From: Escherichia virus KFS-EC3
Sequence record: MZ065353.1
Reading direction: 5' to 3' (one strand)
DNA: 64,000 nt
The translations under genes and the position numbers were made by a program. How positions within the stretch are numbered: position 1 is the stretch's first letter; every line of letters starts with the position of its first letter. The notes beneath the pieces were generated by a model that searched no databases, was not told where the DNA came from, and saw only the letters and a list, made by a program, of their open reading frames with translations. This document shows, in pieces, positions 51,845 through 57,107 of this stretch.

Positions 51845-52075
51845 TTAAAAGCTTTCTTCTACTTCATCGTCTGAATCTTCTAATTCAGCTCTTTTTCCTG
51901 CCAAAGCATCTCTCACAGAGATGTCATCAGTATCTTTTAATTCAGTTTCTTTAACTCTTTTCTTATAATAAGCTTCAAGTTCTTCTAGACCTTCTAATGT
52001 TTGGCAAGAGGCAATTTTACCCATAAATTCATCAATAGAAGCTTCATAAAGAAATTGTTTAAATTCTAGTAACAT
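51845..52075 (-). CDS. uvsW.1: UvsW.1
   Basis: 76 aa from the ATG with GGAG RBS (T4 UvsW.1 is 76 aa); track start 52087 is a TTG extension. Confidence 0.7.
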   Translation of the reverse strand: MLLEFKQFLYEASIDEFMGKIASCQTLEGLEELEAYYKKRVKETELKDTDDISVRDALAGKRAELEDSDDEVEESF

Positions 52076-52087
52076 CTTTTTCTCCAA

Positions 52088-52100: not shown

Positions 52101-52793
52101 TTATAAATTAACTGTTTTTCTAAGTATTCTTAGTTTGTACATTGATAATCCAGTAGCTTTAGAAGCATCTTTCATACATTTATACTTAACACCATTTACT
52201 TCTATAGGTTTAGCAGCTGGGTTATTAGCTCCTGAATTATCTGGCATATTATCTTTAATTTTCTGAATAGATTTAGCGGAATGTTTCCTTCCATACATGC
52301 CATTATTTTTACCTGATTGATTGATAGAATGCAATCTTTTAGCTTCTTCAGTCCATTTTGTTGGGTTCATTCTTTTAGTTTTACTAATTTTACTTCCCCA
52401 TGTAATTGGACGATTTTTCATGAGTTTTGACATATATTGTTTATGTTCTTCCGTATGGTGTTTTCCGTAAAATGGATTACCTTCACCTGATTGAAGTTCT
52501 GCCATTTTACGACGTTCCCAGGCGTAAGATTTATTAACGTGTCTTTCATGAGTCTTTGAATTCATCCCCATACATATAACGGCTTTAATTATACCGTAAT
52601 GGTTTGGATGAATTTTAGCTAAAAGTTTATGAGCTATAAAATGCTCTTCAGCTGTTAGTTCTACCAAATTACACTTATCATCTGTACCGCCCATACATCT
52701 AGGAATTATATGATGAGTTTCAGTGTATCCATTAAGGCGAGCCCGATTCTGGGCTCTATTAATTAAATTATCGTATATTAATTTATAATTCAA
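52101..52793 (-). CDS. HNH homing endonuclease (free-standing) with TTG start
   Basis: 230 aa; HHIIPRCMGG ... NLVELTAEEHFIAHK HNH motif; repeated G-x-N-x-x-Y/F-G-K/R motifs; start codon TTG overlaps uvsW stop with AAGAGG SD upstream. Confidence 0.85.
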   Translation of the reverse strand: MNYKLIYDNLINRAQNRARLNGYTETHHIIPRCMGGTDDKCNLVELTAEEHFIAHKLLAKIHPNHYGIIKAVICMGMNSKTHERHVNKSYAWERRKMAELQSGEGNPFYGKHHTEEHKQYMSKLMKNRPITWGSKISKTKRMNPTKWTEEAKRLHSINQSGKNNGMYGRKHSAKSIQKIKDNMPDNSGANNPAAKPIEVNGVKYKCMKDASKATGLSMYKLRILRKTVNL

Positions 52794-54298
52794 AGTTTAA
52801 CCTCTTTCATCACATAATTAAACTTCTCATCAGCATAACGCTGAATACGATCAAGTCCATGTTTTAAAAGATAGTTTAAATGCGAGTATTTTTTAGAAGA
52901 TGTTTTTGATTTAGAAACTACGCCCGCGTCATCTATGAGGTCCCAGACCGTTGCGATTGTTTTAGAACCATGCTTACGTAATACGCGACCTATTGTTTGC
53001 AATACAATAATTTTAGATTTAACACCGTGTGCTAAAACAACGTGATGCAGATTTTTAACTGAAATGCCAGTAGAAAATACACCATAACTAGCTACTATAA
53101 TTATTCCTTTACCGTTTTCAGCTAAGGTTTTCATTATATTGCGGGTTTCGGTATCAACTTCCCCTGATACGTAATAAACTTTATCGTATTCATTTTTAAT
53201 TAAATCGAAAATAGCTTTACCATGTGATACATGCTTAAACATGACAAAAGCGTTTTCATCTTTTTGCGCAAGCTTAATAGCTAATTTAGCGATCCATTTA
53301 TTTCTTTTACTGAGTCCAGTAATAATTTTTATTTCTTCTTGGTAAGTTTTTCCCTTTAATTTAGTAGTGAACTCATCGGGATAGCGAAGAAAAATACTAT
53401 TAATTTTTAACTCAGTTACTTGTCCATCTTCCATTAATTTAGAAGTCGTTACTGGCTTAAATATTTCACCGAACATTCCAACATACTGCATGATATTAGC
53501 TTTGCCATCACGTAATGAACCAGACAAACCGAATTTGAACATGCAGTTATTTAAACCTGATATGATAGATGAAATACTTTTTCCTGTGGCAAGATGGCAT
53601 TCATCATTCATCATCATTCCAAACTGTGAGAACCATTCTTTCGGTTGTTTTACTACAGTTTGCCATGTACCAACAACGACTGGTGCATCATTTTTATATT
53701 TATCATCTTTTGATGCTCCACCGCCGATTTTCTTTATCATTGCATGACTGAATAAACGATAGTCAACAAAGTCATCAGCCATCTGAGTTGTCAGAGCAGT
53801 TGTTGGAACAATGATAAGAATTTTACCTTCATAATTTTCCAAATAATAACGTGCAAGCAAAGCTTGAATTAAGGATTTACCTGCAGATGTTGGAAGATTA
53901 AGAATTCTACGACGATTAACTAATCCTTCGAACACTGCATCTTTTTGATACCAATGCGGTTCAATTCTTTTATTTCCTGAATAGATTTCTAATTTAGAAA
54001 GCCATTCATCAAAATCTTTTCTTGATAATTCTTCTTTTTCGTTAATCTGTGGGTCAATCCAGGCTTTATAGCCAAAGTTATCACAGAACTTTTTAATTTG
54101 CCCGACTAAGCCGAATGGAAGAAGACGATTATAATCTAAAAGACGGATTCGTCCATCCCAGTTGCCATATCTGAAGCGAGGATTAAACCTATATCCATCG
54201 GCCTCAAACGAAAAGAAATCTCTTAATTCGTGGAACGTGCTCTCTTCACAATCGATGCGTACATGACTGAAGTCGTGAAAATGTACTTTAATATCCAT
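52790..54298 (-). CDS. uvsW: UvsW DNA/RNA helicase
   Basis: 502 aa; Walker A PTSAGKS and DECH box. Confidence 0.95.
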   Translation of the reverse strand: MDIKVHFHDFSHVRIDCEESTFHELRDFFSFEADGYRFNPRFRYGNWDGRIRLLDYNRLLPFGLVGQIKKFCDNFGYKAWIDPQINEKEELSRKDFDEWLSKLEIYSGNKRIEPHWYQKDAVFEGLVNRRRILNLPTSAGKSLIQALLARYYLENYEGKILIIVPTTALTTQMADDFVDYRLFSHAMIKKIGGGASKDDKYKNDAPVVVGTWQTVVKQPKEWFSQFGMMMNDECHLATGKSISSIISGLNNCMFKFGLSGSLRDGKANIMQYVGMFGEIFKPVTTSKLMEDGQVTELKINSIFLRYPDEFTTKLKGKTYQEEIKIITGLSKRNKWIAKLAIKLAQKDENAFVMFKHVSHGKAIFDLIKNEYDKVYYVSGEVDTETRNIMKTLAENGKGIIIVASYGVFSTGISVKNLHHVVLAHGVKSKIIVLQTIGRVLRKHGSKTIATVWDLIDDAGVVSKSKTSSKKYSHLNYLLKHGLDRIQRYADEKFNYVMKEVKL

Positions 54299-54300
54299 AA

Positions 54301-54918
54301 TTATGCCTTACTAAATTTGCCTTTAGAATCTCTTTTCATGAGACGACCTTTAATAAATCCGTCGGGAATAATACCGTCTGGTTGTATTAATTTATTTATT
54401 GCGCCATTATTGACCCAAAAAGTTCCTGTTGTAGTCGGTTTGACTTTACATCCTTTTCTGGACTTTCTATTAGGATGAACCATCCCTTTTACAAATCCTT
54501 CTGGAACAAGTTCTCCAGGCTTAATAAAAATATTTTTAGTTCCATTAGTGTAACAAGTTGTACCTAATACCGTGCCCGGTGAGTTTTCAAATCTCTTAGC
54601 GGAAGATTCTTTCATCTTTGCTATAACCTCTGTAGTCATAACAATTCCACCAATTCCACCAGGTTTCATATTATAATAATTTTTGCTTTTTATCAGTTCA
54701 GGAGTTATAATTTCTTCTTCATACATGTACGCTTCTTCGGAAGTTTTAAACTCTTTTAGTATTTTTCTAGAGAAATTGTTTTCACCATATTTCTTTATAG
54801 CCTGCTGAATTGCCTTACCGGAACCAAGGTAGCCATCATTCAGGTCGTCAGTAGAGTGCTTTCCTATATACTTTTTACCATTTATTAGATTTGTTGTTTC
54901 GTATACAAAGTGGTACAT
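54301..54918 (-). CDS. segE: GIY-YIG homing endonuclease, SegE-like
   Basis: 205 aa; N-terminal YHFVYETTNLINGKKYIGK GIY-YIG motif; position between uvsW and inh as recalled for T4 segE. Confidence 0.8.
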   Translation of the reverse strand: MYHFVYETTNLINGKKYIGKHSTDDLNDGYLGSGKAIQQAIKKYGENNFSRKILKEFKTSEEAYMYEEEIITPELIKSKNYYNMKPGGIGGIVMTTEVIAKMKESSAKRFENSPGTVLGTTCYTNGTKNIFIKPGELVPEGFVKGMVHPNRKSRKGCKVKPTTTGTFWVNNGAINKLIQPDGIIPDGFIKGRLMKRDSKGKFSKA

Positions 54919-54967: not shown

Positions 54968-55648
54968 ATGATAGATAAAGATTATATTGCAGAGCTGAAG
55001 GCTCTTGATGATAATAAAGAAGCTAAAGCTAAATTAGCTGAATATGCTGAACAGTTTGGTATAAAGGTCAAAAAGAATAAATCTTTTGATAATATCGTTA
55101 ATGATATTGAAGAAGCCCTCCAGAAGCTCGCTAGTGAACCTATGCCAGAGACTGATGGGTTATCTATTAAAGACTTAATTGATGCTGCTGATGCTGCAGA
55201 CGGATTAAAATATGACGATGAAGAAGTCAATCCAGAGGCAGCACTTCTGATTGATTCTCCGGTTAAATCTGACATTAAAATTGAAGTAGTAGAAACGGAT
55301 AAAATTCCTGAAAATACCGATGTTTTGATTGAAGATACTCCTTTTGTTGAAGAAAAATTCGAGCAGGCTGTAGCTGAGATTATTGAATCTGAAAAGCCGT
55401 CTGTATTTACTCTTCCGGAAAACTTTAGTCCGAATCTTCAGCTGATTGGAAAAAATCCAGGATTCTGCACCGTTCCTTGGTGGATTTACCAGTGGATTGC
55501 TGAAACTCCGGATTGGAAATCTCACCCAACTAGTTTTGAACACGCGTCAGCACACCAAACTTTATTTAGCTTAATTTACTACATTAATCGTGACGGATCA
55601 GTTCTAATTCGTGAAACACGTAATTCTTCTTTCGTAACATTAAAATAA
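54968..55648 (+). CDS. inh: Inh, inhibitor of prohead protease gp21
   Basis: 226 aa, acidic, position upstream of hoc. Confidence 0.8.
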   Translation: MIDKDYIAELKALDDNKEAKAKLAEYAEQFGIKVKKNKSFDNIVNDIEEALQKLASEPMPETDGLSIKDLIDAADAADGLKYDDEEVNPEAALLIDSPVKSDIKIEVVETDKIPENTDVLIEDTPFVEEKFEQAVAEIIESEKPSVFTLPENFSPNLQLIGKNPGFCTVPWWIYQWIAETPDWKSHPTSFEHASAHQTLFSLIYYINRDGSVLIRETRNSSFVTLK

Positions 55649-55657
55649 GGATAACTT

Positions 55658-57076
55658 ATGGCTTTTACAGTTGATATAACTCCTAAAACACCTACTGGAG
55701 TTATAGATCAGACTCAGCAGTTTACTGCTACACCCAGTGGTCAAACTGGAGATGGACCTATTACATATGCTTGGACTGTAGATGATGTTCCACAAGATGG
55801 AGCTGAAGCAACTTTTAGTTATGTACTAAAAGGACCTGCCGGTCAAAAGACTATTAAAGTAGTTGCAACAAACACAGTTCCAGATACTGATGCTGAAACG
55901 GCAGAAGCTACTACAACTATCACAGTTCAAAATAAGACACAGACAACTACCTTAGCTGTAACTCCTAATAGTCCTCCAGAAGGAGTAATCGGAACAGCTG
56001 TTGAATTTACTGCTGCCTTAGCTTCACAGCCATCGGGCGCATCTGCTACGTATCAATGGTACGTAGACGGTTCTCCTGTGGGCGAAGCAACTTCTGCTAC
56101 ATTCAATTACACTCCTTCCACAAGCGGAGTTAAAACAATTAAGTGTGTAGCTCAAGTAACCGCGACAGATTATGATGCAAAGGAAGTTACTTCTAATGAA
56201 GTGTCACTGACTGTTAATAAAAAGACGCAGACAACTACCTTGACAGTAACTCCTGATAGTCCTCCAGCAGGAGTTATTGGAACCCCAGTTCAATTTACTG
56301 CTACCTTGGCTTCTCAACCTGATGGAGCGTCTGCCACGTATCAGTGGTATGTAGATGATTCACAAGTTGGTGGAGAAACTAACTCTACATTTAACTATAC
56401 TCCAACTACAAGTGGAGTAAAAAGAATTAAATGCGTAGCTCAAGTAACAGCGACAGATTACGATACAAAAGAAGTTACTTCTAATGAAGTGTCATTGACA
56501 GTTAATAAGAAAACAATGAATCCACAGGTTACATTGACTCCTCCTTCTATTAATGTTCAGCAAGATGCTTCGGCTACATTTACTGCTAACGTTACGGATG
56601 CTCCGGAAGAAGCGCAAATTACTTATTCATGGAAGAAAGATTCTTCTCCTGTAGAAGGGTCAACTAATGTATACACTGTTGATACATCATCTATTGGAAG
56701 TCAAACTATTGAAGTTACTGCAACTATTACTGCAACTGATTACGATAGCAAAACTATTACAGCAGAAGGTCAAGTTCAGGTAACTGATAAAGTTGCTCCA
56801 GAACCAGAAGGTGAACTACCTTATGTTCATCCTCTTCCACATCGTACTTCAGCTTACATCTGGTGCGGATGGTGGGTTATGGATGAAATCCAAAAAATGA
56901 CTGAAGAAGGTAAAGATTGGAAAACTGAAGATCCAGATAGTAAATACTACCTGCATCGTTACACTCTTCAGAAGATGATGAAAGACTATCCAGAAGTTGA
57001 TGTTCAAGAATCGCGTAATGGATACATCATTCATAAAACTGCTTTAGAAACTGGTATTATCTATACCTATCCATAA
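55658..57076 (+). CDS. hoc: Hoc outer capsid decoration protein with four Ig-like domains
   Basis: 472 aa; repeated about 96-aa Ig-like modules plus C-terminal capsid-binding region. Confidence 0.9.
   Translation: MAFTVDITPKTPTGVIDQTQQFTATPSGQTGDGPITYAWTVDDVPQDGAEATFSYVLKGPAGQKTIKVVATNTVPDTDAETAEATTTITVQNKTQTTTLAVTPNSPPEGVIGTAVEFTAALASQPSGASATYQWYVDGSPVGEATSATFNYTPSTSGVKTIKCVAQVTATDYDAKEVTSNEVSLTVNKKTQTTTLTVTPDSPPAGVIGTPVQFTATLASQPDGASATYQWYVDDSQVGGETNSTFNYTPTTSGVKRIKCVAQVTATDYDTKEVTSNEVSLTVNKKTMNPQVTLTPPSINVQQDASATFTANVTDAPEEAQITYSWKKDSSPVEGSTNVYTVDTSSIGSQTIEVTATITATDYDSKTITAEGQVQVTDKVAPEPEGELPYVHPLPHRTSAYIWCGWWVMDEIQKMTEEGKDWKTEDPDSKYYLHRYTLQKMMKDYPEVDVQESRNGYIIHKTALETGIIYTYP
55934..56509 (+). 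repeat. tandem duplication of a 288-bp Ig-like domain unit within hoc
   Basis: Two consecutive 96-aa units differ at about 16 of 96 residues by eye. Confidence 0.85.
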
Positions 57077-57081
57077 TCATA

Positions 57082-57107
57082 GGGGCTTCGGCCCCTTTCT
57101 TCATTTT
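57082..57107 (+). terminator. intrinsic terminator after hoc (GGGGC-UUCG-GCCCC + T-rich)
   Basis: UUCG tetraloop hairpin followed by TTTCTTCATTTT. Confidence 0.65.

Follow-up and report, generated by a model that had tools for sequence, protein, structure and literature searches.

Hoc, the capsid decoration fiber protein of phage T4, belongs to a family in which a string of Ig-like domains is mounted on a conserved anchor. Fokine et al. (2023) documented such strings in 650 homologues, the number reaching 10 in Serratia phage Muldoon (PMC10385173), and the number of domains is known to differ greatly among Hoc proteins (PMC13435897). A Hoc variant lacking one domain was described by Fu et al. 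(2024), and the tripeptide S-L-T in domain 2 of the Hoc from phage ΦPNJ-9 was reported as a MUC2-binding site (mucin fucose) (PMC11853027). In the capsid-binding domain, an E-S-R-N-G motif has been named (PMC10385173).

Here we analyze the hoc gene of Escherichia virus KFS-EC3, contained in a window of 64,000 nucleotides (the whole stretch under study, from record MZ065353.1), to whose first letter all coordinates refer. The textbook counterpart, T4 Hoc (PDB 5vf3 and 8t1x; PMC10385173), is encoded by the same gene at the same locus, and its domain 2 is the orthologue of the second of two tandem units found in KFS-EC3 (91% nucleotide identity). However, T4 Hoc is devoid of the first ("alpha") unit and has three Ig-like domains as opposed to four, the extra 96 aa of KFS-EC3 lying between domain 1 and domain 2. 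The initial annotation of this DNA had attributed the extra domain to a recent tandem duplication. We argue instead that the hoc gene of the window is very probably a four-Ig-domain allele of the T4 type with an inherited, old alpha–beta pair, the copy number being set by in-register recombination. A literature search returned no explicit account of the 472-aa form of Tequatrovirus, of the unit lineages, of their fixed order or of contraction chimeras. The variable number of Ig domains in Hoc is already published; lineages, order and chimeras are thus a modest refinement.

The hoc Gene of KFS-EC3

The gene, its parts and two adjacent elements are arranged as follows:

55658..57076, + strand: hoc coding sequence, 472 aa plus stop, capsid decoration fiber protein (ORF and match to T4 Hoc)
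55658..55933, + strand: Ig-like domain 1 (D1), aa 1–92, aligning with T4 Hoc 1–92; predicted β-sandwich (AlphaFold2 pLDDT about 84–93)
55934..56221, + strand: unit U1, "alpha" lineage of the domain-2 family, aa 93–188; block absent from T4
56222..56509, + strand: unit U2, "beta" lineage, orthologue of T4 Hoc domain 2, aa 189–284
56510..56797, + strand: Ig-like domain 3 in T4 numbering (D3), aa 285–380, aligning with T4 189–284; confident AlphaFold2 β-sandwich
56798..57073, + strand: C-terminal capsid-binding domain, aa 381–472, near-identical to T4 285–376
54968..55648, + strand: inh (prohead protease inhibitor), upstream neighbor of hoc
57081..57096, + strand: GC hairpin with a subsequent T run, resembling a terminator, 5 nt past the hoc stop codon

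A phmmer search of solved structures matched the 472-aa product to T4 Hoc (5vf3_Z, 376 aa; E 9e-219). The alignment fell into two stretches, residues 1–109 matching T4 1–109 and residues 189–472 matching T4 93–376, which identifies the gene as hoc with one block of 96 residues beyond T4. The C-terminal domain is homologous to T4 Hoc 281–376 (phmmer domain E 5.5e-171, for query 189–472) and is almost invariant across a 35-sequence alignment; the ESRNG motif, at aa 451–455, is invariant in that alignment. The N-terminal portion is a string of Ig-like (PKD/I-set-like) β-sandwich domains, as recognized by Pfam, the AlphaFold2 model and Foldseek. Among the Pfam matches of the protein, PKD scored 38.5 bits against a cut-off of 23.5, BiPBP_C and PKD_3 were also over their cut-offs, and Ig_3 and I-set matched weakly at residues 289–373, in D3. 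The location is likewise that of a hoc gene, the order inh-hoc-24.3-24.2-rnlB being the same as in T4, on the opposite strand. Over its whole length, the gene is up to 96.5% identical in nucleotides to deposited and annotated hoc genes.

In vB_EcoM_SA20RB, the annotation places a rho-independent terminator at the site equivalent to the 57081–57096 hairpin. A promoter scan returned fewer sigma-70-like sites than in shuffled sequences, and the sole exact late-promoter match, TATAAATA, was found not at hoc but on the minus strand, upstream of a segE-like ORF and uvsW. Consequently, we claim no promoter for hoc.

A Tandem Pair of Ig-like Units

The repeat search found two copies of a 288-nt repeat in hoc (80% identity, spacing 288), along with a 24-nt similarity between the units and D3. 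On the same gene, TRF reported a period of 288 with 2.1 copies, 80% matches, 0% indels and a score of 773, far beyond chance. Placed in codon register, U1 (55934–56221) and U2 (56222–56509) are adjacent, in frame and 288 nt (96 aa) each. Differences occur at 16 of their 96 residues and at 56 of their 288 nucleotides; third codon positions hold 37 of the 56 nucleotide differences, and the change is synonymous in 32 of the codons affected. Their longest exact match is 24 nt.

In global alignments, U1 and U2 share 83% of their residues, as against 31–44% in any pairing with D1 or D3. The internal alignment of hoc, set beforehand as a possible refutation of the duplication, therefore showed that the units are not merely as alike as other Ig domains. 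On these points the initial annotation was accurate: it had given Hoc 472 aa compared with about 376 aa in T4 (the lengths of the ORF and of T4 Hoc agree), had placed two 96-aa units at 55934–56509 with about 16 differences between them (the coordinates match exactly in codon register), and had judged the units far more similar to each other than to the flanking Ig-like domains.

Age of the Pair

Comparison of U1 with U2 by the Nei–Gojobori method gave pS = 0.51, dS = 0.86 and dN = 0.094 (dN/dS about 0.11). In the center of the unit (nt 94–213) pS was 0.77, that is, saturated, and at the unit ends dS was 0.46. For comparison, dS between the window and 20 other phages was 0.05–0.5 in orthologous parts of hoc (D1, D3, the C-terminal domain and the units).

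We also compared all 288-nt units in hoc DNA from 20 further sources. U1 proved 97% identical in nucleotides to unit 1 of SA20RB, 94% to unit 1 of IME340 and 81% to U2; against the first units of all other multi-unit genes compared, the values were 83–91%. U2 was 93% identical to unit 2 of SA20RB, 92% to unit 2 of teqskov and 91% to the one unit that T4 has. A recent duplication should have left copies that are near-identical at synonymous sites and resemble each other more than they resemble any orthologue; instead, the identity was 81% between copies and 91–97% between orthologues. Nor is the pair absent from the closest relatives, being present in SA20RB, Pu-Krd-SF1/2/5/6/7, VEc74, IME340 and many more. 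In neighbor-joining trees the first units formed an alpha clade with 100% bootstrap support (95% from the central region only), and a sister grouping of U1 and U2 occurred in 0% of the replicates. The high dS, the closer orthologues elsewhere and the lack of sister support together point to both units being old paralogues inherited by KFS-EC3 and under purifying selection. Of the original claim, then, a tandem paralogous domain beyond those of T4 stands, whereas the word "recent" does not. The dS value dates the sequence divergence of the units, not necessarily the time when they became tandem.

Alpha and beta units are told apart at 24 sites, all but one within nt 96–213, and U2 is beta-type at 24 of 24. 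Because the unit ends (nt 1–93 and 214–288) lack fixed alpha/beta differences and the units are mosaic, one old duplication, taken as a single clean history, is an idealization. We found no general signal of homogenization within genes when alpha–beta identity was compared within and between them (within vs between: 5′ end, 81.9 vs 82.6%; center, 71.7 vs 71.4%; 3′ end, 81.9 vs 81.8%). The 3′ ends of U1 and U2 of the window are nevertheless unusually alike (90.7%, vs a mean of about 82%), and this is the only such pair; the within-gene dN of the window pair is 0.094, vs 0.12–0.17 in the pairs of other phages. The likeness of the 3′ ends partly explains why the 16 amino acid differences are fewer than in those pairs.

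Copy Number among Related Phages

The hoc gene matches at least 654 phage records. Its length was surveyed in a sample of 60 of these, taken at even steps down the ranking of matching records, and in the 120 best protein clusters. In the sample, hoc measured 1129–1137 nt in 29 records, 1419–1425 nt in 23 (about 38%) and 843–849 nt in 2, the remaining 6 being partial or odd matches. Among the 120 best clusters, Hoc had 376 aa in 79, 472 aa in 29 and 567–570 aa in 9, with single cases of 361, 372 and 468 aa. Identity of at least 90% over the central 120 nt was seen in 149 records for U1 and in 372 for U2. The 472-aa form of this well-known protein is widespread, and it had already been sequenced and annotated.

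Comparing lengths across relatives, a check that the initial annotation had suggested, gave a regular series in steps of 96 aa: related hoc genes differ by whole in-register units, with 280, 376, 472 and 568 aa corresponding to 0, 1, 2 and 3 units. A single unit is present in T4 and many others, two in the window and three in UGKSEcP1 and others. The 472-aa proteins of SA20RB (OL960581), Pu-Krd-SF5/6/7, IME340, teqskov, HP3 and AR1 have the same length as that of KFS-EC3 and the same arrangement, alpha followed by a second unit. Between them there are differences of content: the 3′ end of U2 encodes TATDYDTKE in KFS-EC3 but AENYNEKE in SA20RB and IME340, an allelic difference, and HP3 is alpha–gamma where KFS-EC3 is alpha–beta. 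In the 568–570-aa proteins (UGKSEcP1/2 and metagenome contigs), the same unit family and the same flanks are found with three units, making five Ig domains. The 280–283-aa proteins (F2, AV111 and ΦPNJ-9; PMC11853027) belong to the same series and have two Ig domains, with no unit or with a unit/D3 fusion. In F2 (280 aa) D1 is joined straight to D3, the unit being absent, and in AV111 (282 aa) a beta unit is fused to the end of D3 at a VTATDYD stretch common to the unit and D3, to which the 24-nt similarity of the repeat search corresponds. In length, the AV111 protein comes close to a published ΦPNJ-9 variant of 283 aa that is said to be "lacking Domain 3" (PMC11853027).

Over 12 kb around hoc, Pu-Krd-SF6 is 97.4% identical to the window and encodes a 472-aa Hoc, whereas Salmonella phage pSe_SNUABM_01, at 97.3%, encodes one of 376 aa. 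In the latter, D1, D3 and the C-terminal domain are 97–98% identical to those of the window, and the single unit is of a different type. The number and the type of units thus vary among near neighbors, as a cassette between conserved flanks.

Some other variations were observed. In AR1 and IMGVR_UViG_2974742932, an acidic loop close to where D1 ends carries in-frame 2-aa insertions (…PESESEPETAE… and …EAEAEAETAE…); such insertions give 474-, 378- and 570-aa variants, a second and minor length polymorphism of hoc. The 567-aa Hoc of P0047, a metagenome cluster with 24 members, is 54% identical overall to that of the window and is mosaic, with T4-type D1, alpha unit and C-terminal anchor, and with two following units and a D3 that are only distantly related; its composition suggests recombination with a hoc lineage of far greater divergence. 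Four phages labeled Mosigvirus in the taxonomy (FL18, mar005P1, Shf125875 and AV111) have a T4-type hoc about 85–91% identical in nucleotides to that of the window, which suggests either that hoc has been exchanged across genera or that the genus labels are applied loosely.

Outside this group, the Hoc proteins of the T4-like Klebsiella phages Marfa and PMBT63 (PMC13435897) and of Muldoon share with KFS-EC3 the Ig-like string, in variable number, and the conserved anchor, at about 46–50% amino acid identity. Self-BLASTP on these outgroup proteins returned the diagonal only, and internal repeats were found by an offset identity scan in its place. Marfa Hoc has a tandem Ig pair of its own, which begins near aa 187, has an offset of 94 aa and shows 81% amino acid identity. 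Since the duplicated domain is a different one from that of KFS-EC3, this was an independent event. The T4-like Klebsiella phages also show a parallel series of hoc lengths, with match spans of 1358–1416, 1076–1134 and 794 nt.

Neighboring Homing Endonucleases

On the minus strand, a 205-aa GIY-YIG (SegE-like) homing endonuclease ORF (54301–54918) adjoins inh and hoc. It is absent in some relatives with a 472- or 568-aa Hoc (SA20RB and UGKSEcP1), so its presence is polymorphic right beside the variable hoc cassette. Farther away lie the uvsW helicase ORF (52790–54298, minus strand, 502 aa), an 80-aa ORF downstream of it (51845–52087) and, between the two, a 230-aa ORF (52101–52793). In close relatives the 230-aa ORF is annotated as a homing endonuclease and both flanking pieces as "DNA helicase"; the arrangement looks like a homing-endonuclease insertion in the uvsW/uvsW.1 region.

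Unit Lineages and Traces of Recombination

Besides alpha and beta, three further lineages of units were distinguished:

gamma lineage: UGKSEcP1 unit 3, HP3 unit 2 and the unit of NIC06P2
delta lineage: P0008 unit 2 and Pu-Krd-SF3 unit 1
epsilon lineage: P0008 unit 3, Pu-Krd-SF3 unit 2 and, roughly, UGKSEcP1 unit 2

Between lineages inside one gene, dS ranged from 0.66 to 1.2. For the order of the units, we applied a coarse three-residue key to 120 cluster representatives and, in addition, to the window and T4. By this key, single-unit genes were alpha (68), epsilon (6) or beta (4); two-unit genes were alpha–beta (20), alpha–epsilon (2), alpha–gamma (2) or alpha–alpha (1); and three-unit genes were alpha–beta–gamma (3), alpha–epsilon–gamma (2) or alpha–beta–epsilon (2). 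Alpha comes first in all the multi-unit genes typed, and the order is conserved across two- and three-unit genes.

Chimeric units of the sort expected from unequal recombination in an array do occur. The single unit of NIC06P2 equals HP3 unit 1 over nt 1–92 (3 mismatches) and HP3 unit 2 over nt 110–288 (2 mismatches), and it is the product expected of an in-register deletion of 288 bp. The single unit of IMGVR_L004 is alpha-type over nt 1–60 and beta-type after that. HP3 unit 2 is itself a patchwork of UGKSEcP1 units 2 and 3.

The single unit of T4 is mosaic as well, being beta-type over nt 1–225 and alpha-type at its 3′ end. We considered whether it could be a deletion chimera with an alpha 5′ part and a beta 3′ part, and rejected this possibility: T4 is beta-type at 22 of 24 diagnostic sites, and the confinement of alpha-type sequence to the 3′ end (nt 226–288, TDYDALS) is of opposite polarity to a simple deletion product.

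The initial annotation had also seen in the repeat a substrate for further expansion or contraction, an idea that the natural contraction chimeras support. No exact run between U1 and U2 exceeds 24 nt, however. Given the homology requirements of recombination in T4, copy-number events here should be much rarer than in a fresh duplication, the repeat being a weaker substrate.

Origin of the Alpha–Beta Pair

A recent in situ duplication within KFS-EC3's own lineage would readily account for two units that are adjacent, in frame, equal in length and without indels, and for a pair somewhat more alike (16 amino acid differences, 3′ ends 90.7% vs about 82% identical) than those of other phages. Yet the 56 nucleotide differences and the dS of 0.86, the 97 and 94% identity of U1 to the first units of SA20RB and IME340, the 93% identity of U2 to unit 2 of SA20RB, the failure of U1 and U2 to group as sisters in any bootstrap replicate and the occurrence of the architecture in about 38% of the sampled records make it highly improbable. 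The other 472-aa genes cannot be recent horizontal copies of KFS-EC3's, as they diverge by up to 12%. An artefact of assembly or annotation, in which a repeat was collapsed or expanded, deserves even less credence. Repeats of 288 nt can indeed be mis-assembled from short reads; here, however, 56 differing positions make the copies uniquely assemblable, the reading frame is intact, and hundreds of independent genome records and metagenome contigs share the structure.

A somewhat more plausible, though still unlikely, origin is out-of-register recombination between alpha-only and beta-only alleles in a mixed infection, which would make the array younger than the alpha/beta divergence and older than this phage lineage. 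Alpha-type, beta-type and other single-unit genes do exist (Shf125875, IMGVR_L005, T4 and mar005P1), neighbors with about 97% identical flanks carry differing unit cassettes, and the mosaic units attest to frequent exchange among units and alleles. On the other hand, the constant first place of alpha and the conserved order in two- and three-unit genes fit descent from one array better, and several single units are contraction chimeras, so that some single-unit genes derive from arrays. Going further back, the starting point may have been either a multi-unit array that later lost units or a single unit to which others were added.

According to the inherited-pair explanation that we prefer, Hoc of KFS-EC3 is made up of D1, alpha (U1), beta (U2) and D3, followed by the C-terminal capsid anchor, which is conserved. 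The alpha–beta pair would have been inherited rather than newly made, its unit lineages being spread over hundreds of Tequatrovirus-type hoc genes. Copy number would change through in-register homologous recombination, acting between units or, in mixed infections, between hoc alleles; chimeric and mosaic units would arise in this way too. The resulting Hoc would present two copies of a surface module implicated in mucin-glycan adhesion.

Predicted Structure and Possible Function

Structure prediction, another check proposed at the outset for what was taken to be a four-domain protein, returned four β-sandwich domains plus the C-terminal capsid anchor. The AlphaFold2 model, built from the 35-sequence alignment, had a mean pLDDT of 83, with four all-β domains over aa 1–378 (block means mostly 88–95) and a C-terminal domain of low confidence (pLDDT below 50 at residues 380–403), as might be expected of a domain whose folding takes place against the capsid. 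In the PDB, the best Foldseek matches were four-Ig arrays, namely, Dscam1 Ig1–4, Sidekick-2 Ig1–4, ICAM-5 D1–D4 and the MpAFP tandem Ig-like region (E about 1e-13).

Of the 16 residues at which U1 and U2 differ, 11 lie outside the predicted strands, even though strands make up 55% of the unit, and the differences cluster at unit positions 46–55. Between phages, dN/dS is about 0.2–0.3 in the Ig domains vs about 0–0.04 in the C-terminal anchor (anchor dN about 0–0.018), in agreement with the published picture of a conserved anchor and variable Ig-like domains (PMC10385173).

Hoc of the T4 type is bound as a single copy in the middle of each gp23 hexamer and is not needed for infectivity. By analogy with T4, Hoc of KFS-EC3 would sit at the center of the gp23 hexamers through its C-terminal domain, and its fiber would be one Ig domain longer than the 180 Å fiber of T4. 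Dividing 180 Å by four domains, the increment would be about 45 Å. The tripeptide reported to bind MUC2 occurs in both units:

56204..56212, + strand: S183-L184-T185, first copy of the putative MUC2-binding motif, in U1 (role suggested by ΦPNJ-9)
56492..56500, + strand: S279-L280-T281, second copy of the putative MUC2-binding motif, in U2 (role suggested in the same way)

Through its second S-L-T, the additional unit could add to the valency of mucin-glycan binding.

Implications

At the level of the phage population, our results are compatible with a broader picture, which we put forward as tentative, its chances being slightly short of even. The domain-2 region of T4-type hoc would be a cassette array drawn from at least four old lineages (alpha, beta/epsilon, gamma and delta), kept in a fixed order at 0–3 copies and reshuffled by unequal recombination and patchy conversion. 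In this picture, hoc alleles may cross genus labels (Tequatrovirus/Mosigvirus), and the textbook three-Ig Hoc of T4 would be a minority, possibly derived, beta-only allele. If this picture is true, phages could tune the length of the fiber and its glycan-binding valency.

T4 nanoparticle vaccines use Hoc as their display scaffold, and the phage-adherence-to-mucus model rests on this protein. T4 carries just one of several natural Hoc architectures, and many coliphages that are therapeutic candidates carry a lengthened Hoc with two or three domain-2 modules. The architecture of Hoc therefore matters for the design of antigen display, for immunogenicity and for comparisons of mucus adherence between phages.
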